Source: Candidatus Niyogibacteria bacterium
GTDB taxonomy: Bacteria > Patescibacteriota > Minisyncoccia > HO2-45-28
Assembly: GCA_016432485.1 (NCBI GenBank)
Contig: CP066691.1
Location: 153,294-217,293, forward strand
Reading direction: 5' to 3'
DNA length: 64,000 nucleotides
Shown in pieces: positions 28,617 to 51,061 of the stretch (position 1 is its first letter; the number at the start of each line of letters is the position of its first letter). The position numbers were made by a program, and so were the translations under genes. The notes below the pieces were generated by a model. That model ran no database searches. It saw only the letters and a program-made list of their open reading frames with translations, and was not told where the DNA came from.

Positions 28617-30344
28617 TTATTTTTTTATTTTTTCAATCCCCCTCTTCGCGTAAGATTCCATTTTTTTAATTTTTTCTTTCAAATTGTTAAGAATGTGTTC
28701 GTCATCTACGGGAGTCGGAGTTCGCCGCGCCACATCAAGTGCCTCGATATCTTCCATAATAAGACCGAATATTTTTGTTATCTCGGATTGCATAAAAACA
28801 ACGCGTAAAGCCAACTTATTTTCCCTTTTTTTATAAAACCACGTACCCCCTCCGAACCCAACAATTAATACTAAAAGCAGCAATAAAGCTGTTCCTCCTT
28901 TGCCAAGCGATATGAAGCCGATTGAAATAATCGGTTTGCTTCTTACTTTAATTTCATCAGACGCAACCTCAAGACTCAAAGCGCCGCGATCGTCACGGCT
29001 TTGAGCAATTGCAACATAATCTCCGTTTTTTGGCGGAGCATCAAAAGTGCCTTCCCACCTCCCTCTTTCGTCACTACGAACTACTTTTTGCGCGGTAATT
29101 TCATATTTATCATTTCGCAACAAACGCCTCACGCTCAAAAGCACATCTAAATTAGCCGGAGCAGTGCCGTTAATTGCCAGCGGAATTTCGTCATCGGAAA
29201 AAACTTCCGAGGTTATAAAAGCAATGACCGGAGAATCAATGGGCAGAATTTCAAGCGTCAAACCGTTTTCAACTCCGTTTCCGGCCGCATCCACGGCCCT
29301 AATTACAACTTGTCTTTTGCCCGGCGCCTGCAGAGGTAACTTGAAAACTCCGTTAAATCCATCCGCGGGGATTCTTATCAGGTCTCCAACGCCTATGCGG
29401 ATTTGATATTCGGCAATTCCAGAAAGAGCGTCCGTTGTTTGAAAATTTAAAGTCGGCGATGGATTATCCGTAAACAAACCCTCTAAAGAAACCGCCTCAA
29501 AACCCGCCGGCGGACGGGTATCTACCGCCAGACGATAATGGGAAACAGGTCCCCAGCCGATGTTATTGCGAAAACGAATATGAAAATAACTCACGCCGTC
29601 GCTCAGCGATTCAAATGTTTTTTCTTCAAACAAGCCCTCCGATACCGCCGTAGGCGCATAGTTGGGCTGGGTATTTAAGGCGGTACTCACGCCGGAAACA
29701 TCCGGCGGCAAATCCCAGCGCGCCGTAAAAATATCCGAAATGTTATACCAGCGAGAAAGGTCGGGGTAAAGCGGAACAGATATTTCCGGTTTTGCCGGCA
29801 ATCCGGCGGCAGCAGCTGGAGTCCTCGTAATTTGCCGCGGCTCTGGGACTGCTGGCCGGCTTATTTCCGGCAAAACGCTTATTAAAGCGCCACTGATTTT
29901 TGACAAAATATTCGTACCGCTGCCATCGGACGCGGTTATGGCGGCTTCAGGCAAAAGAAGCTCGGCCTGTCCGCTTCCGCGGGTTTTAAAAACAATTTTT
30001 AAAATTTGAATTGAACTTCCGGAAACTCCGTATGGCGTTCCGCCAATAAATGAAACAATGCCCTCGTTATTTGAAAAATTGGGCTCTTCAAGCCAAAAAC
30101 TGAAAGCCGATCCGTCTTTTTTTAGAGAAACTACTTCTAATGTTTCTTTTGGGAAACGGATAACGGCTTGACCGGCGTTAAATCCGGCGCCCTCGCTATC
30201 TATTTTTATATCCATGATTATTTCATCCCCAACTCCCGCGTCTAAATTTGAAGGCGATGCAAAAATGGTCGCGGCCTCCGCCAAGCCGGCGAAAGAAAAA
30301 ACCAATAATAACCCAAGTAACATTAAAATATGTTTATGTTTCAT
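28617..30344 (-). CDS. Signal-peptide-bearing protein with an N-terminal cohesin-like domain, Ig-like middle domains and a C-terminal TM anchor.
   Basis: 575 aa. Signal peptide MKHKHILMLLGLLLVFSFAGLAEA. The cohesin assignment for aa 25-160 is based on pattern similarity. C-terminal TM helix ALLLLLVLIVGFGGG. Confidence 0.55.
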   Translation of the reverse strand: MKHKHILMLLGLLLVFSFAGLAEAATIFASPSNLDAGVGDEIIMDIKIDSEGAGFNAGQAVIRFPKETLEVVSLKKDGSAFSFWLEEPNFSNNEGIVSFIGGTPYGVSGSSIQILKIVFKTRGSGQAELLLPEAAITASDGSGTNILSKISGALISVLPEISRPAVPEPRQITRTPAAAAGLPAKPEISVPLYPDLSRWYNISDIFTARWDLPPDVSGVSTALNTQPNYAPTAVSEGLFEEKTFESLSDGVSYFHIRFRNNIGWGPVSHYRLAVDTRPPAGFEAVSLEGLFTDNPSPTLNFQTTDALSGIAEYQIRIGVGDLIRIPADGFNGVFKLPLQAPGKRQVVIRAVDAAGNGVENGLTLEILPIDSPVIAFITSEVFSDDEIPLAINGTAPANLDVLLSVRRLLRNDKYEITAQKVVRSDERGRWEGTFDAPPKNGDYVAIAQSRDDRGALSLEVASDEIKVRSKPIISIGFISLGKGGTALLLLLVLIVGFGGGTWFYKKRENKLALRVVFMQSEITKIFGLIMEDIEALDVARRTPTPVDDEHILNNLKEKIKKMESYAKRGIEKIKK

Positions 30345-32038
30345 TTTCTTTTTATGCTACGAATAAAAATACTAAAATCCGATACGTCAATTTTACCATC
30401 ATTATTAAAATCAATTTTCCCCCTAGCTTCTTCTTTCTTTTTAGAACCCCAGAGCGCGAGAAAAATACTCCAATCCCTTATATCAACAACGTTATCACTG
30501 CTTAAATCGGCGCTAACCTGCTGGAGACGGGAAACTGTAAAAGAATTAAGCGGGGAAAGATCGCTTTCTTGTTTGGTCGCCGGATTAACCTGTTTCGCGT
30601 AAATGCCGTGAGTGCCGAATTCCAATTCCCCCGTGGGGATTATAATTTTATACGAGCCATCGTCTCCCGCGTCAGCTTCAATTTTTACCTTGCCGTCAAC
30701 TTCAGCGCGGACTTTGTGGCCCGGTGAAGCATAGCCCAGAATCACTAAGGATTCGCCGCGCGTGACGGCCGATTTTGCGAAACCCAAAGTCGGGGGCACA
30801 AATATTTCTTTTTTAGTTAAACTATTTGAAATCGTGTCTATATTAAAAAATTTGGTCTGGGTTTTCCGGCCTTCGCTATCTTTAATAACCAGGCCAAAAC
30901 CATGCTGTCCCTGGAGCACTCCGACAAATTCTATATTAAAAACTCCGTCTTCAGTTAAAACCTTGCCTTGGCTTAAAACTTTTTCGTATCTAGTGTCTTT
31001 GTCTACGATAAAGGTGCTTCCTCCAGGGAACGCCTGCCCCGAAAAACGGATTCTTGTGGGGGGAATGGAGAATTTTGGCGTTGGCGGAAAAAATATTCCG
31101 GGACAATTTTGATAAGTATCCAAAGGCGAACCGGCATCGGTTATTCTAAAAATATAAACATCCTCAAAAACGAAACCCTCTTTGTCTTCCAAAACCCATT
31201 CGTATTCTGTTTTTTCGTTTTTAAGCATTGATCTCGAAGGTGCGGGATTGACAGAACTCAGTATAAGTCCCGACACAAAACCTGCCCCTGAAGTAATTTG
31301 CTGAGTTGTCACAGATGAATCGGTGAAATAAGGGGAGGAGCTTAAAACGAATTTGCCGCTTGATCCCGAAATCCTTTGCCATCCGCCTGAACTTGAACAA
31401 CTTTCATTTTCAGATACTTTTTTAAATTCTAATTGTGGAGAAATTGTCCCGGCCGCGTTCTTAACACGAATACCAAACCTCAATCTGAACTTACTTGGAT
31501 ATTCCAAATGGCTTCTAGGGTTTTGTTGGGAATTTTGAAGCGTGTTTTCAACGTCCCACCCGGTTGCGCTAGTCTCTGAACCGTCGTCGTCGCGGAACCA
31601 AAAATCGCTCTGGACAAAAGAAGCGTTTTCGGCAGGGCCAAAAACTATTTGCCGCGTAGAACTCACGTCTAACCCAGTCCCTTCTGTATCGGAGAGAGAC
31701 AAATTTACGGTTTCCGCGACAGAATCATTTATCGAAATAATTCCAACTCCGTTCACAATATCAATCAGCCCTCCGCCTGTGGCCGAACCGTTCGCAACCA
31801 ATGTCACATCGTTTTGATAAACCGCATAAACTTGGTTGTTACTCTTTTGAGCTTGAACTGTGACCAAAACTGGAATTCCTACAGTGCTATTATCCGGATT
31901 CAAAATCACAAATTTAACCGCGCCAGTCGGCTGAGCCGCCTTCGCTAAAATAAAAGGTAAAATCAGCAAGCCCGCGATTAAAAATTTTTTAATTTTAAGC
32001 ATGCGATTACTGCGCCGAAGAAGAACGTTGACCGCCAA
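30341..32038 (-). CDS. Secreted multi-domain protein ending in a type I dockerin.
   Basis: 565 aa. Signal/TM at the N-terminus. The C-terminal duplicated Ca-binding segments DLSSDNVVDIRDWSIFL and DFNNDGKIDVSDFSIFI match the dockerin DxNxDGxIDxxD pattern. Confidence 0.65.
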   Translation of the reverse strand: MAVNVLLRRSNRMLKIKKFLIAGLLILPFILAKAAQPTGAVKFVILNPDNSTVGIPVLVTVQAQKSNNQVYAVYQNDVTLVANGSATGGGLIDIVNGVGIISINDSVAETVNLSLSDTEGTGLDVSSTRQIVFGPAENASFVQSDFWFRDDDGSETSATGWDVENTLQNSQQNPRSHLEYPSKFRLRFGIRVKNAAGTISPQLEFKKVSENESCSSSGGWQRISGSSGKFVLSSSPYFTDSSVTTQQITSGAGFVSGLILSSVNPAPSRSMLKNEKTEYEWVLEDKEGFVFEDVYIFRITDAGSPLDTYQNCPGIFFPPTPKFSIPPTRIRFSGQAFPGGSTFIVDKDTRYEKVLSQGKVLTEDGVFNIEFVGVLQGQHGFGLVIKDSEGRKTQTKFFNIDTISNSLTKKEIFVPPTLGFAKSAVTRGESLVILGYASPGHKVRAEVDGKVKIEADAGDDGSYKIIIPTGELEFGTHGIYAKQVNPATKQESDLSPLNSFTVSRLQQVSADLSSDNVVDIRDWSIFLALWGSKKKEEARGKIDFNNDGKIDVSDFSIFIRSIKRK

Positions 32039-35524: not shown

Positions 35525-37036
35525 TTATTCCATAACCACAACCGCGCCTGTCATTGAAGGATTCAGATGATTGTGATATTTCCAAGCTCCAACATGGTCA
35601 AAACGAAATTCGTATTTTTCTCCATTGGCTAGGCGCCGGCAAACGTCAAAAGCGCTGCCCAAACATCCGCCTTTTTGAGGATAGACGGCGTGCGTCGGAT
35701 GAACGGCTGACGCCGGCCAAGCGTCTAATCCGCTTTCATTTACCCAAACAACGCTTCCGCCTTTTTTAATCTTTACTTCCAACGGCTCAAAACCATTTCC
35801 GGTTATTTTTACAACTACCGAAGCCGGACTTTCAGCAACCGGTTTAGAAGCGGTTTCCGATTTTTTGTCGGCTCTCAACTCCGGTTTTTTTACCGACTCG
35901 TTAGAACGCTTGACCACTTCTTCTAAAGATTTTTTTGCGGAGTTTGAATTGCGTAAAGAACTGTTTGCTTGTCCCAGCGCTTCTCCGAAATTCTTGGCAT
36001 CAAACGCTTCCCGAGATTTCTTTAAGTGGTCTTCGGCGTTAGCTAAAAGTTCTTTAACATTTTGAGGTATTGCTTTTCCGTCGTTTTCATAGCGCGCAAT
36101 TTTATCTTTAAGCTCGATTATTGATTTTTCGGCCTCAACTATCGCGCGTTTGGCTTTTTCGGCGACATCAAATCTGTCGCGCTCAATATCGCGTAAAAGT
36201 TCATCCCCCTCCCCGTTTTTTAATTCGTGGCGAGCCCTAAGTTTGATAATGGTTGAAGCGGCGTCTTTCACGCCCTCTTTAAGCTCTTTTCTGACTTCTT
36301 TCAATTCATCCCGCGATTCAACATTAACCAAGCGGTCTTCCAGGATTTTTAGTTTCGTTTCAAAACGCTCTTTCAATTCCGGCGGAATTTCTCCGGATTT
36401 TTCGGCAATTTCTTCCAAATGCTCTGATCGACGCTCAAGCTGCTTTTTGAGACGCTCAATATTATTTTCTAAAAGCTCCTTGGCCTTTTCCTGCTTTATT
36501 AAATTCTTCTCAACTTGGCGCTTCAAGACCTCTTCGGACTTATCAAGCCCTTTTCTTGAACTTTCAAGAGCACGATTCAAGGCCTCGCGCGCATGCTCCG
36601 GCGCTTTATCCAAAACGCCCTCAAGCACTGACTGCTGTTTTAAAGAAAGGTCATTAAATTTCGCGATTAAAGAATCCAAATTGCGGCCTTCTGTATCCAA
36701 ACGTTCCAAATCGCCTTCGGCGGCTTCAGCCCTCACTCTGGCAAAGCCCTCCGCGCGCTCAACAACCGCGCTTTCGGCTCCCGACTCAACAACCGCCTTC
36801 AATTCCGCAAGGCGCTTTTCGGCAATTTCAACCTTCACTTCCGCTTTCCTGACGGCATTAAAAGTTAAAAGGTTTAGGCGCGTCCAATCGCCGAATCGTT
36901 CAAAAATGTGGAGTGGACTGGCGGGCGTAAGGCCGGCGTCGGGCAGAACTTCGTCTGTTTCTTGCGCAAAAACAGTCGTTGAGAAGGTTAAGACAAAACT
37001 TATAATCAAGACCTGTAAAATTATTTTCTTTGCCAT
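35525..37036 (-). CDS. Secreted coiled-coil protein, DUF5667-like N-terminus, with a C-terminal domain carrying His/Cys/Met residues reminiscent of a cupredoxin fold.
   Basis: 503 aa. Signal peptide, LPDAGLTPASPLH motif, long E/K-rich coiled coil. The antisense + ORF 36150..37049 is an artefact. Confidence 0.45.
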   Translation of the reverse strand: MAKKIILQVLIISFVLTFSTTVFAQETDEVLPDAGLTPASPLHIFERFGDWTRLNLLTFNAVRKAEVKVEIAEKRLAELKAVVESGAESAVVERAEGFARVRAEAAEGDLERLDTEGRNLDSLIAKFNDLSLKQQSVLEGVLDKAPEHAREALNRALESSRKGLDKSEEVLKRQVEKNLIKQEKAKELLENNIERLKKQLERRSEHLEEIAEKSGEIPPELKERFETKLKILEDRLVNVESRDELKEVRKELKEGVKDAASTIIKLRARHELKNGEGDELLRDIERDRFDVAEKAKRAIVEAEKSIIELKDKIARYENDGKAIPQNVKELLANAEDHLKKSREAFDAKNFGEALGQANSSLRNSNSAKKSLEEVVKRSNESVKKPELRADKKSETASKPVAESPASVVVKITGNGFEPLEVKIKKGGSVVWVNESGLDAWPASAVHPTHAVYPQKGGCLGSAFDVCRRLANGEKYEFRFDHVGAWKYHNHLNPSMTGAVVVME

Positions 37037-41251: not shown

Positions 41252-42190
41252 ATGGATTTTATTTTCTTCGGAACATCCGAATTCGCTATCCCAATTTTAG
41301 ACGCCCTTAAAAATAAAGGGCGGCTTCCGAAATTGGTTGTTGCTACTCCCGACAGGCCGGCTGGCCGGGAACTTAAATTAAAATCCTCGCCGGTTAAAAT
41401 GTGGGCGGAAAAAAATGGCATTCCGGTCATACAGCCGGAAAATCTCAAAAACCCCGATACTCTCCAAAAACTAACCGACACTAAGTGCCGGTTAGTTTTG
41501 GTGGCGGCTTACGGCAAAATCATACCGAAAGAAGTTTTAGATCTTCCCGAAAAAGGCTCGCTCAATGTGCACCCCTCGCTTCTTCCGCGCTACAGGGGAG
41601 CCGATCCGATACGATCGGCAATTCTTGCCGGAGACAAAAAAACCGGCGTAACCGTAATGCTGATGGATGAAAAAATGGACCACGGGCCAATTCTTACGCA
41701 GAAAGAATTGGAACACCTAATATTCAATGCCCAATATTCAATACTAAAATCCGAACTGGCGGAATTAGGAGGAAAACTTCTGGCTGAAACGCTTCCCAAA
41801 TGGCTTGCGGGAGAAATTAAACCAAAAGAACAAGACCATTCAAAAGCGACTTACACCAAAAAAATTACAAAAGAAGACGGACACATAAACTGGTCTGAAT
41901 CGGCAGAAATTATTGAACGAAAAATAAGGGCATTAAATCCTTGGCCCGGAACTTATTCGTTCTGGAACGACAAAAGAATTAAAATTTTGGAAGCCGAAAC
42001 GCCAAAAATGTCGTGCCTGGGAGGTTCTATAAAATATGGAGAGGTTTTCAAAAAAGACAGCGGTGTCGCCGTTACTTGCAAGAACGGGGCAATTTTAGTT
42101 AAAAAACTTCAGCTTGAGGGCAAAAAATCTCAAGACGCCAAAAATTTTCTCAACGGCCATCCGGATATAATTGGCGCGATTTTAAATTGA
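41252..42190 (+). CDS. fmt: Methionyl-tRNA formyltransferase.
   Basis: 312 aa. Formyltransferase core (HPSLLPRYRGADPI) and a C-terminal tRNA-binding domain. Confidence 0.9.
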   Translation: MDFIFFGTSEFAIPILDALKNKGRLPKLVVATPDRPAGRELKLKSSPVKMWAEKNGIPVIQPENLKNPDTLQKLTDTKCRLVLVAAYGKIIPKEVLDLPEKGSLNVHPSLLPRYRGADPIRSAILAGDKKTGVTVMLMDEKMDHGPILTQKELEHLIFNAQYSILKSELAELGGKLLAETLPKWLAGEIKPKEQDHSKATYTKKITKEDGHINWSESAEIIERKIRALNPWPGTYSFWNDKRIKILEAETPKMSCLGGSIKYGEVFKKDSGVAVTCKNGAILVKKLQLEGKKSQDAKNFLNGHPDIIGAILN

Positions 42191-44230
42191 TTAAAATCCG
42201 AAGAGTTGAAGGAAAGGAGCAACAACCGCGCCTAAAATACTCGTATTAATTTTGGAGGTCGGCTCGCTTGGAGGAGGTTGCTGAAATTGTTGCTGAAGCT
42301 GCTGCTCCTGCTGTTGAAATTGTTGTTGATATTGCTGTTGATACTGTTGTTCAAACTGCTGCTGATATTGCTGTTGAGATTGCTGTTCGAATTGCTGCTG
42401 ATATTGCTGTTGGTATTGCTGTTCGAATTGCTGCTGAAATTGCTCGCCAGACCCTTCCGGCGCTACGAATCCTTCAGGCGGCATCATTCCTTCAGGCGGC
42501 TTAAAGCCTTCTGGCGGCATCATCCCTTCAGGCGGCTTAAAGCCTTCTGGCGGCTGACCTCCTTCAAATCCTGGCGGAGGTCCTCCCTCAAATCCTTCTG
42601 GCGGCTGAAAACCTTCAGGGAACCCGCCATTAGGGCCGGGTCCTTCCGGTTTTGGCATAAATTGTTCAAAACACTGCCTTATATTATCTCCCGCGCTTTC
42701 ACTCGGGGAAACTGCGCCGGAGCGAATGCCCTCAACATCAATAACTCCTTCCAGGCAGGATTTTACTTCCGGCGGAGCGGAATCAACCATTTCCAATATC
42801 TGCCGTTTTCCTTCCTCCATCCTCTGTAAATCCTCTTCTGAAATAAGCCCGTGCTCTTTGGCAAAACTAAAACATGTTTCTTGATTCGCGGGATTCTGGC
42901 AAAACCCTTCGCATTCTTCGCGGCCCCTGCAATTTCCCGGCCCCTTTCCGCCAGTTTTACGCGCCATTTCAACTTCTTCGGGCGCGATAAATCCCGCGGC
43001 TTCGGCAAAATCCAGACATTCATTAAAATGACTTTCTTCCGAACAATAAACGTCGCATTCTTCCTTTCCGCCGCATGCCGGCGGTTTTATGCCTTTTTTA
43101 ATGGCGGCCAGCATTTTTTTGGCGTCTTCCAGTTCTCCGGGAGGAATCAAGCCGGCTTTTTCGGCAAAATTAAGGCAGGATTCCATATTTCCCGGCTGAG
43201 AACAATACGCATCGCAAGATTTTTTTCCCCGGCAGGGCGGGGGCTTTGCTCCGGCTTTAACCGCGGCCAAAACCTTCTTCGCGTCCTCCAATTCATCAGG
43301 CGGAATGAAACCGGCGGTTTCTCCGAAAATAATACATTCCTCCATATGGTCGGAACTTTCACAATAAGAATCGCACTCGTCTTTATTCTTGCATCCGCCG
43401 GGCAGCGTGAGGCCGGACGCCAGAGCTTTTTGGACTTTTCTGGCTTCTTCCAGTTCATCCGGAGGCATAAGTCCGGTTTTCTCGGCAAACGCCAGACACT
43501 CGTCAATACGGCTTACATCATTGCAATACGATTCGCAGGAATCAGCGGACGTGCATCCGCCGGGACCCTTGGCTCCGGCGGCGCTGAACTTTTTGGCTTT
43601 ATCGGCTTCATCTTTAGAAATCAAATTATGCTTCTCGGCAAACGTAACACAAGCGTTTATATTTGCCGGATCATCGCAATAAGAGCGGCATTCGGTTTCA
43701 TCTTTGCATCCATTTAATTCCGCGACCGGATAAACTATTTCTGTTTTTACTGTCTCGGCGCTTTTAGTCGGGGTCTCAACGCTGCTTGGAACGGTTTTTG
43801 GGGAAACTGGGGCTGGAGTCGGAGCTGGAGGCGGCGGAGCGGCATTAGTAATTCTTCCGCGACTTATGCCGTCAGAGGGCGGCAGAAGTTCAAGTTGAGT
43901 AATATCGCCTTTGCAGTCGGTAATTTCGGCAAAGAGCGCCGGCGTAAAATCATCGGGGTCGGCAAAAGAAACGTTATTATTCTCAAAAGTTTTGGGACAG
44001 CCGGCAAGTCCCGCGGAGTAAGGAAGTTTATTCGGAGCCTTTAAAGAAAAATCCTTGATGCCATCCGAATCTCTTATGGTTAAAATAAAAAGACCGACCG
44101 ACGGATCTTTTTTAAGAACGACCGAAGCGTTGGGCGCGGCTTGCGCTATATAATATAAGGATACGGAAAGAAAAATGACTGACCCCAAAAAGAACCATAA
44201 TTTTTTATTTAAAATTGTGTTTGATGGCAT
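42191..44230 (-). CDS. Secreted/anchored repeat protein. It has six Cx5Cx3Cx8C modules of about 50 aa, each followed by FAEKxGLIPPDELEDAKK, then a P/G/E-rich linker and a Gln-rich (QQFEQQYQQQ) tail.
   Basis: 679 aa. N-terminal TM/signal. The repeats were verified by eye: CKDETECRSYC..C, CTSADSCESYC..C, CKNKDECDSYC..C, CRGKKSCDAYC..C, CGGKEECDVYC..C, CRGREECEGFC..C. Confidence 0.6.
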   Translation of the reverse strand: MPSNTILNKKLWFFLGSVIFLSVSLYYIAQAAPNASVVLKKDPSVGLFILTIRDSDGIKDFSLKAPNKLPYSAGLAGCPKTFENNNVSFADPDDFTPALFAEITDCKGDITQLELLPPSDGISRGRITNAAPPPPAPTPAPVSPKTVPSSVETPTKSAETVKTEIVYPVAELNGCKDETECRSYCDDPANINACVTFAEKHNLISKDEADKAKKFSAAGAKGPGGCTSADSCESYCNDVSRIDECLAFAEKTGLMPPDELEEARKVQKALASGLTLPGGCKNKDECDSYCESSDHMEECIIFGETAGFIPPDELEDAKKVLAAVKAGAKPPPCRGKKSCDAYCSQPGNMESCLNFAEKAGLIPPGELEDAKKMLAAIKKGIKPPACGGKEECDVYCSEESHFNECLDFAEAAGFIAPEEVEMARKTGGKGPGNCRGREECEGFCQNPANQETCFSFAKEHGLISEEDLQRMEEGKRQILEMVDSAPPEVKSCLEGVIDVEGIRSGAVSPSESAGDNIRQCFEQFMPKPEGPGPNGGFPEGFQPPEGFEGGPPPGFEGGQPPEGFKPPEGMMPPEGFKPPEGMMPPEGFVAPEGSGEQFQQQFEQQYQQQYQQQFEQQSQQQYQQQFEQQYQQQYQQQFQQQEQQLQQQFQQPPPSEPTSKINTSILGAVVAPFLQLFGF
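42270..42440 (-). repeat. 24-nt tandem repeat array encoding the QQ[FY]EQQ[YS]Q tail.
   Basis: gctgttgatattgctgttgagattgctgttcgaattgctgctgatattgctg periodicity. The leucine-rich + ORF 42278..42829 is its antisense artefact. Confidence 0.6.
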
Positions 44231-44498: not shown

Positions 44499-44558
44499 AA
44501 TTTAAGTATAGCACTTCACCCGCCTTTTTTTTATTTCAATCAGCCGGCTGTGTATAAC

Positions 44559-44596
44559 TAAAACCCCCCGCGGCTGCGGGGGGTTTTAGTTTTTTA
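44559..44596. terminator. Bidirectional rho-independent terminator.
   Basis: aaaa-ccccccgcggctgcgggggg-tttt perfect hairpin with flanking A and T runs. Confidence 0.65.
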
Positions 44597-44806
44597 TCTG
44601 CGGAAATCTCGTCTCGGGTGGCTTTTGCGGTAACAATCCAGGCAAAATACCGGCCGGCCCTCTTTGGGCTCAAACGGCAGCTTGGTTATTTCGGCTCCGC
44701 AATCAGAACATTTCCAGTTCCCCTCAATCATGGGCGGACGGCCGGATTGGTCGCCGTTAGAAAAACCTCCGTTGCCCCGATTTCCATTATAATTGAAATC
44801 TTGCAC
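44594..44806 (-). CDS. Small zinc-ribbon protein (CxxC-x17-CxxC).
   Basis: 70 aa. WKCSDCGAEITKLPFEPKEGRPVFCLDCY. Confidence 0.4.
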   Translation of the reverse strand: MQDFNYNGNRGNGGFSNGDQSGRPPMIEGNWKCSDCGAEITKLPFEPKEGRPVFCLDCYRKSHPRRDFRR

Positions 44807-44901: not shown

Positions 44902-45906
44902 TTACTTTACATCCAAAAGCTCTATTTCAAAAATAAGAGTTGAATTCGGAGGAATTTTTCCGCCCGCGGCTCCGGTAACACCGTATCCGAGTGAGGGCGG
45001 AATAATCAATTTTCTTTTGCCCCCAATTTTCATTCCCAAAAGTCCCTGTTCCCAGCCCTTAATCACCTGCCCAGCGCCAAGAGTAAAAGAAAAGGGAGTT
45101 TTGCGGTCGTAAGAGCTGTCAAATTTATTTCCATTTTCAAGAGTTCCGATGTAGTGCACGCTCAAAGTTTTTCCGTTTTTGGCTTCAGCGCCTTCGCCCG
45201 CTTTTATATCTTCAATTTTAAGCTCCCGCTTGGCTATGGCCGGTTCACCGCTAATAATTAAATTCAATTCGTCAAAGGATGCGGCAAAATTATTTACCAG
45301 AGACGCGAATTCTGTTCCAGCGACGGCTAATTTCGCGTTGATCGAAACAAAAGAGGGTTGTTCTGCCTCTTGGCCCGCGGCAAGCGCGTCATAATAACTT
45401 TTAGCCGTATTCAGTAACTCACGCTCAAGCGCGGCCATTTCTTTAAAACCGAGGATCAAACGGCCCAAGATATCGGCTACTTTTTCCGCCGTATCTCCGG
45501 CTTCTTTAGTTCTGACTCTGCTAGCGACAGTTTTAAATTCCTCAGTTTTCAGTTTTAATAGCTCATTTTTCTGCTCAAGCTCATCCACAATTTTTAAAGA
45601 TCCGGCAACTACTTCCGAGGAACCTTTAAAATCGCGGGCATTTTCTTTATCAATAAGTCCGTTAAAACTTTGAGCAAGCCGAACCTGAAGAATATCAACC
45701 ATATCAAAAACCAAATCGCCCGCTTCCCGCGATTTTTCCGGAATCTCGGACAATCCCCTGCTGTTTGAAAGATAGTAATGCGAATAATAATAAATACCGG
45801 CGAAAAGTAATATCAAGGCCGCGGCTCCCGCAAAAACTTTTAACCGATTAGCCGTTTTCATATACAAAGATGATACCATAATTTTAATTTTTAAAAAGGC
45901 CGGCAA
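44902..45906 (-). CDS. Membrane-anchored FKBP-type peptidyl-prolyl cis-trans isomerase.
   Basis: 334 aa. C-terminal FKBP domain ([55 protein letters not shown]), N-terminal TM and coiled coil. Confidence 0.8.
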
Positions 45907-45924: not shown

Positions 45925-47334
45925 ATGAAAATATGGCTGTGGACAATAATTCTTATCGTGATTGCGGCATTTTTTTATATGTACGGTTTGGCCCGTCTGC
46001 CATTGGAGGAAGCGGATGAAGCGACTTACGCCATAGTAGTTCGCGAAATGATTCAGAGCGGGAATTTTCTTACGATGACTTATGACGGAGCCGTGTGGAC
46101 CGAAAAACCGCCGCTGCTTTTCTGGCTTATGGCCGGAAGCGCGAACCTTTTCGGCCTTAACGAATTTGCTCTTCGTTGGCCGATAGCTTTCTTCGGAATT
46201 TTAGCCGTATTTTTTACGGCAGGAATTCTTAAAACGGCGACGGGAAAAAATGAAATCGCGTTTATCGGAGCAATAACAATGATTTTATTTCCCCTTTTTC
46301 TGGCTGCCGCGCGAAATATCCGAATGGATGTTCCGGTCGTAGCTATGATGCTGGGCGCGGTGTGGTGCGTTTTTAAAAGCGCTGAAAATAAACCCTACGC
46401 CGCGGGAGTGGGCATTTTAACGGCCATAGGATTTTTATTAAAAAGCGTCGTGGCGCTCTTGGCTTTGCCGATTATATTTATTTACGGCCTTATTTACCGA
46501 GATTGGCAATGGATGAAAAATAAATACTTTTGGCTCGGCTGGGGCGCGGGCGCAATCATTGCTCTTCCTTGGCATATTTATGAAACCGTTCTTTTGGGCG
46601 GACGCTTTATTGCCGATTACCTCGGATTGCATGTTATTGAAAGGTTTAGCGACAATATTATTCAAAGCGGCATTACCGCGCCGTACATAGCAAAAGTTTT
46701 TTGGATAGCGGGACAGCCATGGAGCAGTGTTTTGATTTTAGCCCTTCTGATATTCGGCGCGACTTTTTTCGGCAAACAGAAAGAATCTTCCAAACAAATA
46801 CGGCGGCTGGCTCTTTTCTCTTTTACTTCTTCGGTTTTCCTGATAGCTATTTTTATGGCGTCTCGGACAAAACTTATTACTTATTTTATTCCCGCCTATC
46901 CCTTTTTAGTTTTATTCCTGGCCTCCGTATATTGGTGGTTTTTGGAAATTTCGCAAAAAAAGTATGTATTATTTTTACGGGGCACGTTCATTTTTCTTGC
47001 CATAATTGCCTTCGGCTTAAGTTTTAGAGAAGCATTTTTGGAAAGCAAACTCTATGTCTCACGGCAAGTTTCAGACGCTAAACCGGTCGGCGTTTATCTG
47101 GCAGATGCGCCCGAGAATATTCCGGTTTTTAGTTATGAATACGCGTATGACAAAACCGTCAGATTTTATTCCGGCAAAGATATTATCAGAATAAAAGAGG
47201 ACAACGGACAAACACTTGAGACGCCGTTTTATTTAATTATCCCGACGGCTTTGCTGCGAGAAAACGAATGGTTAAACCGATTCCCAAAACTTCACAGCGG
47301 AAAATATTTAACTCTGGTCCTCGTTCAGTCGTAA
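45925..47334 (+). CDS. Glycosyltransferase family 39/83 (ArnT/PMT-like) integral membrane protein.
   Basis: 469 aa with more than 10 TM helices. The N-terminal loop motif DEATYA...W.EKPPLLFW is diagnostic of the GT-C ArnT/PMT family. Confidence 0.7.
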
Positions 47335-49138: not shown

Positions 49139-51061
49139 TTAAATATTATTTCGCGATAAAAGTTTCTCAGCATATTCCCAAAACTCCGGCGTATTGTGTT
49201 TAATTTTAAGCCAAAACCACCATTCCGCGCCCCATAAATAATATTCGTCAAAACCGCTGGCCTTGGCGTAATCAATCGTGTTTTTAAAAAAATCCAAATC
49301 AAAATATTTCAATTGCTCGTCAAGCGCTGTTTCGTAAAGTTGTTCGGGAAGCCACGGCTCGGCCGCAAGCTCTGAGACAATAAATTTTTTCTCATGCTCT
49401 CCGGTAAGCCGTCTTATTATTTTTTCTTTAAGTCCGAAAAACTCCGGCGGCAGATGATATTCAATAAAGCCGAGCGTATCATTATAAATCCTGCGATACA
49501 TTGTCGTTCCGAAAATATCTCCGCGTTTAACCGCCCCAAACCACAATCCCAATTCGCCGCTATCCGTAATTAAGACCGGGTGATTGGAATCCAGGGATTT
49601 GACCAGCGTTATTTCTTCATCCAGAAATTCTTTATCCAGCGGCGGACATTCGCCGAATTTTAAAAACGGCTCGTTTTCTACCTGCCAATATAAAAGCGCC
49701 GGATGATTTTTATAGCGATTTACGACGGCTTCGATATATTTAAGCAAGCTTTGAGCTTTTAGCTTTGAGCTTTTAGCTCGAGCCCATTCGGGCTCATGAC
49801 ATTCGGGCCAGCGCGGCAGTTTCCGGCCAACAGCCAAAATAACCCGCGCGCCGGAGAACGCGGCTTCATCCATTTGATAATCCAAATTTTGAAAATCAAA
49901 CTTGTCTTCCTCCCGTTCAATCATGTCCCAATAAGCGATGAGACGGATGCGCTTCGGCTTTAATTCTTTTATAATCGCGTCATAATTTTCGCGCCAATAA
50001 GCCCCCTCACCTACTTTGCCATCTTTTGAATTTGCGCTTTGCGCCACGGCAAAGTAGGTGTGGGGGTCAGACCCGAGCTTTTCGGAAAATTTTTGCGAGA
50101 ATGTAACGCCCCAGACAACTTCCCTTTGCGGGTCGGGCGCCCATCCGGCGCTCGCCCATGCGTCTGACTTGTAATATTCGCCGACGGCAAGCCACAAAAT
50201 GCCCAGGGTTATTACGACAAGAGCCGCTATTTTTCCGACAAGCGCCCACCCTCTAAAACGCTCGCGCAAAATCAGCCATCCGCCGAGAAAAATAAAAACA
50301 TATTTAAGATTGTAAGTTGAATCCACAAGCGGCGGAAGTCCAAGCAAAAGGGCATAGTATATCAAAACGGAGCCGCCTCCGGCATAGCTCCGATTCAGAA
50401 AATATGCCCACTTGCTTTTGAATTCGTCTTTACCTTTGGGTCTTAAGATTTTCCCGCGCAGCGCCGGAAGTAAAAGAAAGGCAAGAACCGTAAAAAGTCC
50501 CGCAAGTTTAATCCAGATGAAACCCGTAGCAAAATTGGTCATTTCAAACACGCTTTTGGTAAGCGTGTTTGAAAGTCCGAAAGAAAAAGCGGAGGCAAGC
50601 GCGAAAAGGCCGATTTTTAGGCGAAAAGGCGCGGATTCAACAAAAAATAAAATAAGTCCGCCGAAAATTAAAATAGAAAATCCGACAAACTGATGACTGC
50701 TTAATTCAATTCCTAAAATGAGCGAGCTGAAAATGTAAGTGAAAACCGGTGAAATCGCGCCTATTAAAATTACGGAGTTTGACGCTTCACCGTAAAAAAG
50801 AGCGTAAAAATAAAAAAGCATTGCCAAAATGAAAAAGATGCCGGCCAAAAAAGCAAGGCCGGCCTCAGACAAATTCAAAATTCTAAAACCAAACGGCAAA
50901 AAAACCAGTGAAAAAACTCCCAAAATCCCAAGCCAAAAAGTATAGCCGATGGGATTCGGATATGATTTTTTCAAAAGCAGTTTGTCTATTACGGCCGATG
51001 ACCCGTTCACAAACTGTGCTGCAATAGCAACCAAAAGCCACATGGATTGATTATATCCCAA
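49139..51061 (-). CDS. Fusion of an EamA/DMT-like 10-TM transporter domain with a clan GH-A glycoside hydrolase (GH5-like) domain.
   Basis: 640 aa. The N-terminal 300 aa are polytopic membrane. The C-terminus has YWQVENEP (the NEP acid/base motif of clan A TIM-barrel hydrolases). It contains a 14-nt tandem duplication near 49750-49790. Confidence 0.65.
   Translation of the reverse strand: MGYNQSMWLLVAIAAQFVNGSSAVIDKLLLKKSYPNPIGYTFWLGILGVFSLVFLPFGFRILNLSEAGLAFLAGIFFILAMLFYFYALFYGEASNSVILIGAISPVFTYIFSSLILGIELSSHQFVGFSILIFGGLILFFVESAPFRLKIGLFALASAFSFGLSNTLTKSVFEMTNFATGFIWIKLAGLFTVLAFLLLPALRGKILRPKGKDEFKSKWAYFLNRSYAGGGSVLIYYALLLGLPPLVDSTYNLKYVFIFLGGWLILRERFRGWALVGKIAALVVITLGILWLAVGEYYKSDAWASAGWAPDPQREVVWGVTFSQKFSEKLGSDPHTYFAVAQSANSKDGKVGEGAYWRENYDAIIKELKPKRIRLIAYWDMIEREEDKFDFQNLDYQMDEAAFSGARVILAVGRKLPRWPECHEPEWARAKSSKLKAQSLLKYIEAVVNRYKNHPALLYWQVENEPFLKFGECPPLDKEFLDEEITLVKSLDSNHPVLITDSGELGLWFGAVKRGDIFGTTMYRRIYNDTLGFIEYHLPPEFFGLKEKIIRRLTGEHEKKFIVSELAAEPWLPEQLYETALDEQLKYFDLDFFKNTIDYAKASGFDEYYLWGAEWWFWLKIKHNTPEFWEYAEKLLSRNNI

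Follow-up and report, generated by a model that had tools for sequence, protein, structure and literature searches.

A conserved two-gene cassette of Parcubacteria encodes a predicted disulfide-stapled helical-repeat envelope protein and a small membrane partner

The Helicobacter Sel1-like proteins HcpB and HcpC are secreted and built of tandem alpha-helical repeats, each of 36 amino acids with two helices and one disulfide, that form a disulfide-stapled continuous solenoid. Staphylococcal protein A combines a signal peptide with tandem three-helix modules of ~50–58 amino acids, a variable Pro-rich spacer and a C-terminal hydrophobic anchor, and its modules contain no cysteine. In Escherichia coli the exported proteins PBP5 and PBP6 are anchored at the external surface of the cytoplasmic membrane through a short amphipathic helix at the C-terminus. 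Alpha-hairpinins, CS-alpha/beta toxins and defensins, and the pheromones of Euplotes raikovi are single mini-proteins in which the cysteines of a helical CxxxC are cross-linked to adjacent elements, and ARM, TPR and PPR proteins join helical units in one rigid body. Here we describe a gene of Candidatus Niyogibacteria, a lineage placed in the Parcubacteria group of Patescibacteria, that lies at 42191..44230 on the minus strand of the window, the 64,000-nucleotide stretch of DNA analysed. Its product is identical to QQG46399.1, "hypothetical protein HYY55_00945", and represents a domain family not described before; its overall layout is that of a familiar surface protein, but it belongs with neither protein A nor the Hcp proteins. 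The repeats are 48–54 amino acids long with three predicted helices and four cysteines, unlike those of Hcp. In contrast to protein A the modules are Cys-rich, there is no LPXTG or charged tail, and no sequence or fold match links the two. Compared with the cystine-stabilised peptides, the modules stand in arrays of 5–13 within an envelope protein of 500–1,500 amino acids. The short first helix of the three-helix unit recalls ARM, but cysteine staples and an extracellular location are foreign to ARM, TPR and PPR repeats. The likeness to the PBP5/PBP6 anchors is an analogy only, drawn from the hydrophobic moment and not from homology.

We propose, with moderate confidence, that the gene encodes a Sec-exported, disulfide-stapled helical-repeat envelope protein set on a variable stalk with an amphipathic anchor, and that it acts with a small partner. 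After Sec export the signal peptide would be cleaved and the six modules of ~50 residues would fold outside the cytoplasm as a continuous all-alpha array, which disulfides would lock into a rigid head. A disordered stalk of PEGF and Gln/aromatic-rich sequence, whose length would shift by indels of a 24-nt unit, is envisaged to join this head to a C-terminal amphipathic helix lying most likely in the outer face of the cell membrane. The genetic linkage suggests that the repeat protein would function as a pair with a small membrane protein encoded immediately upstream.

The open reading frame (ORF) is genuine, with an ATG start and 679 codons plus stop, and contains all that a first-pass annotation had described in it: six Cx5Cx3Cx8C modules, PEGF repeats and a QQ[FY]-rich tail. 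A signal peptide, an N-terminal accessory domain, a C-terminal amphipathic helix and a co-conserved upstream gene were absent from that annotation. The protein has 28 cysteines rather than the 24 of the modules, the remainder forming two pairs, C78/C106 and C492/C520, each spaced 28 residues apart. The module pattern is exact in all six copies, with the first cysteine at residues 175, 226, 280, 333, 386 and 434 and a period of 48–54 amino acids; none of 20,000 shuffled versions of the protein had more than one match, and 32 had one. Because intermodule identity is 27–56% in protein and 44–59% in DNA, the modules are old, diverged copies and not a recent DNA repeat. The segment FAEKxGLIPPDELEDAKK, annotated after the fourth cysteine, is genuine and clearest in modules 2–4. 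Across the family the four cysteines are complete in every full-length module (833/833); in the window protein acidic residues flank the cysteines.

An AlphaFold2 model of residues 160–535, based on an alignment of 89 family sequences, is wholly alpha-helical, with three helices per module, a mean predicted local distance difference test score (pLDDT) of 92.4 and a predicted template modelling score (pTM) of 0.74. Cys1 sits in an extended segment preceding helix 1, which is 9–10 residues long and carries Cys2 and Cys3. After a one-residue break, helix 2 (13–14 residues) carries Cys4 and the FAEK segment, and helix 3 (DELEDAKK..., 12–15 residues) follows the GLIPP turn. A second, independent run gave the same array at pLDDT 94–97. 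The cap that closes the array is also predicted to be helical (pLDDT 88–95), and its C492 and C520 are invariant in the 89 aligned sequences. The pTM suggests that the modules pack as one body and not as beads on a string. The earlier description of the repeats as "disulfide-knotted" is too strong, as each module is predicted to form three helices within an uninterrupted helical array and not a knottin-like mini-domain.

The module was unrecognised in the first-pass annotation and has stayed so. Searches of Pfam, NCBIfam and PDB sequences with the whole protein, a six-module profile, a 46-module profile, 46 single modules, the tail and the N-terminal domain returned nothing above cut-off, and the literature yielded nothing on the motif or the family. 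Foldseek found no match at E ≤ 0.001 among 350,542 PDB chains (best E 0.53, template modelling score ≤ 0.21) and none in BFVD. The Sel1 profile (PF08238) had no Pfam match at E up to 10, and Foldseek gave no significant fold similarity to solved Sel1-like repeat structures. The top Foldseek matches were PPR and TPR proteins but non-significant, and neither a repeat-profile match nor a significant fold match to ARM, TPR or PPR was obtained. Sub-threshold Pfam matches of single modules fell mostly in small secreted disulfide-rich families (AtDEF-like, E_raikovi_mat, Toxin_2, Kazal), and a non-significant match of a module to the toxin BmKK4 had E 2.5 in PDB sequences. Matches to ADAM10_Cys-rich, AtDEF-like and SPP1_GP23-1 in a few homologues were rejected as summed fragments of the cysteine pattern, or as signal peptide plus first module, that do not recur.

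Export, as annotated earlier, is predicted to proceed via a Sec-type signal peptide that nearly all family members share. Among 266 members an N-terminal hydrophobic core is present in 258 and a small-x-small site after it in 251, and only 7 have any RR of the Tat-like kind in the signal region. Three relatives carry a C-terminal extracellular Laminin_G_3 lectin domain. At the other end of the protein, the last ~24 residues of 190 complete relatives were compared with shuffles: the mean best hydrophobic moment is 0.458 against 0.342 when shuffled, and 90% of tails exceed their own shuffle mean. The longest stretch of uncharged apolar residues in a tail spans 7 at the median, and 18 or more in only 1%. 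Because the moment is raised and the tail lacks the length and apolarity of a transmembrane helix, an in-plane amphipathic anchor would be the better fit. This amphipathic or hydrophobic tail type is kept across the family, with PPP(S/T/Q)S before the end in 105 of 268 relatives. There is no sign of sortase anchoring in the window protein: its tail, PPPSEPTSKINTSILGAVVAPFLQLFGF, lacks the succession of LPXTG, hydrophobic segment and basic residues, and even the relaxed pattern LPx[TSA][GAS] is limited to 10 of the 268. The NCBIfam models of exosortase, archaeosortase and rhombosortase sorting signals (PEP-CTERM, PGF-CTERM, GlyGly-CTERM) matched neither the whole protein nor its tail at E up to 10, and PEP and PGF were found in 13/268 and 3/268 relatives.

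Between the cap and this tail, the PEGF tract comprises ~7 P(P)EG[FM] units (Tandem Repeats Finder, TRF, period 18/36 at 42471-42566) and is followed by the DNA array that encodes the Gln-rich segment (TRF, 42308-42444). To call that array near-perfect at 24 nt, as had been done, overstates its regularity: at period 24 TRF finds 77% matches, and a 36-nt period fits best, with 87% matches over 3.8 copies. The repeat-number variation predicted for it is borne out by the closest relative, locus L010, whose modules are 96% identical to those of the window protein and which differs by exactly 24-nt indels in the repeat tracts. These 8-residue differences fall in the (PA)n linker, in a PPGFEGGF unit and in a QQQFEQQY unit; one further 8-residue indel is not in a repeat. 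Among relatives the stalk ranges from 71 to 180 residues.

A word-indexed search returned 1,541 relatives, all "hypothetical" and, where the source was named, all from Patescibacteria. Exhaustive HMMER searching with the module profile against 1.84 billion representatives, clustered at 50% identity, found at least 1,777 proteins at E ≤ 0.001 and 949 at E ≤ 1e-30, with 5–13 modules and lengths of up to 1,555 amino acids. The largest, P0132 (1555 amino acids) and P0137 (1431 amino acids), have 10–13 modules and C-terminal extensions of more than 800 residues that lack a Pfam match. A scan of species-representative genomes located at least 368 encoding loci, and the best 80 of these represent a dozen or more named Parcubacteria lineages, including Niyogi-, Nealson-, Jorgensen-, Harrison-, Wolfe-, Staskawicz-, Yanofsky-, Wildermuth-, Terry-, Taylor-, Azam-, Magasanik- and Gribaldobacteria. 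Loci L010, L011, L020, L038 and L084 are labelled "uncultured Candidatus Saccharibacteria", Aenigmatarchaeota, Methylomirabilis or Gammaproteobacteria, probably because the contigs are generic in name or mis-binned; L011 (= L009) is syntenic with the Niyogibacteria window at 71% DNA identity. Every label that can be interpreted points to Parcubacteria, to which the family appears confined, and viral contigs contained no relatives.

Nearly all members share a signal peptide with an AxA-type site, a strongly conserved mature start of (D/N)I(Q/V)(Y/F)P(V/I)xELGxC, usually six modules, a two-cysteine cap, a variable tract rich in Pro, Gln, Glu and Met, and a short hydrophobic or amphipathic end. 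Each module position retains its own signature across relatives. The window protein has the signal peptide, the YPVxELGxC start, at least five four-cysteine modules, the two-cysteine cap, the low-complexity stalk, the amphipathic C-terminal tail and an upstream gene whose product ends in NPF. Its accessory domain, 99 residues with the pattern LKKDxxGLFxLTIxDxDGIxxFSL...CP...DC, is a feature of some members only: an exhaustive profile search found it in ~16 of 147 representatives, which overturned the impression of an orphan left by the single match of a word-indexed search. It is present in L010, missing from the syntenic L009, and has no match in Pfam, NCBIfam or PDB sequences.

The head is 50–78% identical across Parcubacteria lineages, which is high for a surface protein, and because of this identity we lean towards a housekeeping envelope role, perhaps as a scaffold or binding platform, over that of a fast-evolving adhesin. 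A host-attachment adhesin of an episymbiont, in which the array would be the stalk for a tip domain and repeat changes would tune reach or antigenic variation, seems unlikely. The succession of signal peptide, tandem modules, Pro-rich spacer and C-terminal anchor does recall Gram-positive adhesins, stalk length varies, and some members have accessory tip domains, either the beta-rich-looking N-terminal domain found here or Laminin_G_3. Highly expressed secreted proteins have also been proposed to serve attachment in cultured Paceibacteria (PMC10936435), although these are different proteins and are not linked to the repeat-protein family. However, such conservation of the head across many candidate phyla, with signatures kept at each module position, is unlike fast-evolving adhesins, the tip domain is missing from most members, and the gene keeps its small partner while the housekeeping genes around it vary.

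That partner, HYY55_00950, ends 13 nt before the ATG of the repeat gene. A small ORF (median 90 amino acids) immediately precedes the repeat gene in 87 of the 89 loci fetched (83 of 85 once redundant loci are removed), and one of the two loci without it has only 234 nt of upstream DNA. At these loci the small protein comprises an N-terminal transmembrane segment, a variable linker and a C-terminus with the consensus TNPLExKPDxNPxxKANPFKxIKTNPF, whose final NPF is invariant and lies 0–3 residues from the end. Clustering of all neighbouring ORFs at 86 loci revealed no other conserved neighbour, and the contexts vary among housekeeping genes: def-fmt here, proS-prfA, dnaK-dnaJ or others elsewhere. 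As the small gene is near-constant while all other neighbours vary, the two form a self-contained cassette. In the window a hairpin and T-run (Table 1) are probably a terminator that sets off the two-gene unit. From the gene linkage we hypothesise that partner and array interact.

The case for disulfides begins with cysteine parity, as 259 of 266 mature proteins (97%) have an even count. The other large ORFs of the window contain 0–10 cysteines (median 2) against 28 in the repeat protein. Bacteria of the candidate phyla radiation are reported to be enriched in an MdbA-like thiol-disulfide oxidoreductase with VKOR (bioRxiv 10.1101/335083). The Sec-type signal, the Laminin_G_3 fusions of some relatives and the sub-threshold module matches to disulfide-rich families point the same way. 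The lone pairs C492/C520 and C78/C106 are not Cys4 metal sites because two cysteines cannot supply four ligands. There are probably two disulfides per module and one each in the accessory domain and the cap. Within the modelled module a pairing of Cys2 with Cys4 and of Cys1 with Cys3 is plausible, because Cys2 and Cys4 are symmetric about the turn between helix 1 and helix 2.

Several observations weigh against the arrangement we favour. When AlphaFold2 was run with an unpaired alignment on the array fused to the partner's soluble tail via the partner's own disordered linker, the NPF tail was not docked on the array (tail pLDDT 34–48). The number of modules and the number of NPx motifs are uncorrelated (rho −0.07, p 0.55), and flanking charges leave the membrane topology of the partner ambiguous. 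Many Parcubacteria inhabit anoxic water, where extracellular disulfides are less secure. DsbA, MdbA and VKOR genes are lacking in the 64-kb window, which is uninformative for an 837-kb genome. Four invariant cysteines per module would be equally expected of a Cys4 metal site.

The first three of these points also bear on the possibility that the array is a peptide-binding solenoid for the NPF-ended tail of the partner, the two making up a membrane-anchored complex. The near-absolute gene pairing speaks for such a role, as does the tail itself, which is extended, rich in Pro and Asn and invariant at its end, of the kind that solenoids bind; the pTM would also suit a rigid, continuous array. We nevertheless regard it as doubtful, given that the fused construct left the tail unplaced, module and motif numbers do not correlate, the ambiguous topology means that the tail may be cytoplasmic, and Foldseek detected no significant similarity to ARM, TPR or PPR solenoids. 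An extended version, in which the array would bind the partner's invariant C-terminal peptide as a novel type of extracellular solenoid and would form with it a Parcubacteria-specific envelope machine, a membrane-to-wall or membrane-to-host tether with its reach tuned by 24-nt indels in the stalk, is distinctly speculative.

The first-pass annotation had offered two alternatives for the modules, and of these disulfide-stabilised extracellular repeats fit best, while rubredoxin-like knuckles are not supported: the module cysteines are spaced x5, x3 and x8, CxxC is absent from the modules, and Cys2, Cys3 and Cys4 lie in predicted helices and not in the beta-hairpins of rubredoxin knuckles. More broadly, each four-cysteine module might be a site for Zn, Fe, Cu or Fe-S in an extracytoplasmic metal-binding, storage or redox array. 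The invariance of the four cysteines, the acidic residues beside them and an anoxic habitat that would leave thiols reduced are consistent with this; the partial spacing Cx5Cx3C is known from some Fe-S motifs in the literature, and a few modules match Fer4_4 and metallothionein very weakly (E 0.02–0.2). It is improbable all the same. Besides the missing CxxC knuckles and the helical setting of three of the four cysteines, a preassembled cofactor could not be exported by a signal of the Sec and not the Tat type, the invariant lone pairs in the same protein imply an oxidising folding route, and no rubredoxin, zinc-ribbon or ferredoxin family scored above threshold.

The PG_binding_1 motif FQxxxGL...G resembles the module segment FAEKxGL...(D/E)EL, so that the modules could be divergent three-helix domains like PG_binding_1 or other peptidoglycan-binding domains (PGBD) that fix the protein to the cell wall. 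We consider this very unlikely, as searches up to E 10 with the whole protein and with 46 diverse single modules found no match to PG_binding_1 (PF01471), and no peptidoglycan-binding protein was among the Foldseek PDB matches listed. Secreted proteins labelled PGBD are highly expressed in Paceibacteria (PMC10936435) but are not tied to the repeat-protein family; for one protein from that study, PMX_810_sub_00350, the best UniRef match is a Microgenomates protein at 29% identity, and it probably belongs to another family. A precursor of a ranthipeptide/SCIFF-like ribosomal peptide, or an otherwise unfolded protein, can be dismissed for practical purposes, as the weak NCBIfam match to the freyrasin family (E 0.23) is far below threshold (11.5 bits against a cut-off of 30), no radical-SAM gene neighbours it in the window or at 85 related loci, and the protein is large, has a signal peptide and has a confidently predicted fold.

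Parcubacteria are a huge and almost uncultured branch of the bacteria in which the cell envelope and host contact are poorly understood. The two-gene cassette is conserved across them and seemingly absent elsewhere, its predicted fold is without match among solved structures, and the repeat protein is unusually Cys-rich for Parcubacteria proteomes. It is a well-defined target for structural and biochemical study, is useful as a marker gene and is a candidate for a core envelope component in Parcubacteria. The module merits a domain-family entry, and the finding by itself resolves no long-standing question. The features of the cassette are collected in Table 1.

Table 1. Features of the repeat gene and its surroundings, in window positions.
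Feature	Positions	Strand	Details
Whole repeat gene	42191..44230	-	679 aa, QQG46399.1
Sec-type signal peptide, residues 1-31	44138..44230	-	Read from sequence: KK, hydrophobic core, AQA|AP
N-terminal accessory domain, residues 32-130	43841..44137	-	Cys pair C78/C106; only in a subset of the family
Pro/Thr/Ala-rich linker, residues 131-165	43736..43840	-	Length differs from L010
Six-module Cx5Cx3Cx8C array, residues 166-483	42782..43735	-	Opens with conserved VYPVAELNGC
Module 1 (C175, C181, C185, C194)	43571..43720	-	
Module 2 (C226...C245)	43418..43567	-	
Module 3 (C280...C299)	43256..43405	-	
Module 4 (C333...C352)	43097..43246	-	
Module 5 (C386...C405)	42938..43087	-	
Module 6 (C434...C453)	42794..42943	-	
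C-terminal helical cap, residues 476-525	42656..42805	-	Invariant Cys pair C492/C520
Pro/Glu/Gly/Phe-rich PEGF repeat stalk, residues 526-595	42446..42655	-	TRF period 18/36; 8-aa indel relative to L010
Gln/aromatic-rich tail QQQ[FY](E/Q)QQ[YS], residues 596-651	42278..42445	-	Corresponds to the DNA tandem array (TRF)
C-terminal tail, residues 652-679	42194..42277	-	PPPSEPTS and helix ILGAVVAPFLQLFGF; proposed peripheral membrane anchor
Upstream partner gene HYY55_00950, 84 aa	44244..44498	-	Transmembrane segment and C-terminus ...NVLKDVPVINPVDKANPFKDIYKNPFE
16-bp GC-rich hairpin and minus-strand T-run	44556..44591	.	Just past the upstream zinc-finger gene

The stop of the repeat gene abuts that of the convergent fmt at 42190/42191 with zero intergenic bases, and there is no terminator-like site between the two genes. 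Antisense ORFs within the repeat gene, at 42278..42829 (+) and 42851..43717 (+) (183 and 288 amino acids, rich in Leu, Arg and Phe), were rejected as mere shadows cast by the biased codon use of that gene. Just upstream of the cassette a 70-residue treble-clef zinc finger (PF23477, E 6e-13) is encoded at 44594-44806 (-), and the same small gene occupies the same place in the syntenic L009 (5487-5687). Beside the cassette, 44902-45906 (-) encodes a membrane-anchored FKBP-type prolyl isomerase of 334 amino acids with an N-terminal transmembrane segment and a long helical linker. An FKBP gene is also found just downstream of the homologue in L005, so that the adjacency is seen in only two loci; the enzyme could be a folding helper for the Pro-rich repeat protein. 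A PMT_2/PMT-family glycosyltransferase resembling protein O-mannosyltransferases is encoded at 45925-47334 (+), 1.7 kb from the repeat gene, whose Pro/Ser/Thr-rich linkers would be plausible glycosylation targets.

Further predicted secreted proteins are encoded near the repeat gene, at 28617-32038 (-) and 35525-37036 (-). The nearby secreted set includes a 575-residue ORF that carries a signal peptide and lacks a Pfam match, a 565-residue ORF ending in Dockerin_1, and a DUF5667 protein, and a DUF5667 gene is also close to the homologue in L009. At 49139-51061 (-) an unusual fusion joins an N-terminal EamA-type transporter domain to a glycosyl-hydrolase TIM-barrel region with GH42-, GH2- and GH10-like matches.

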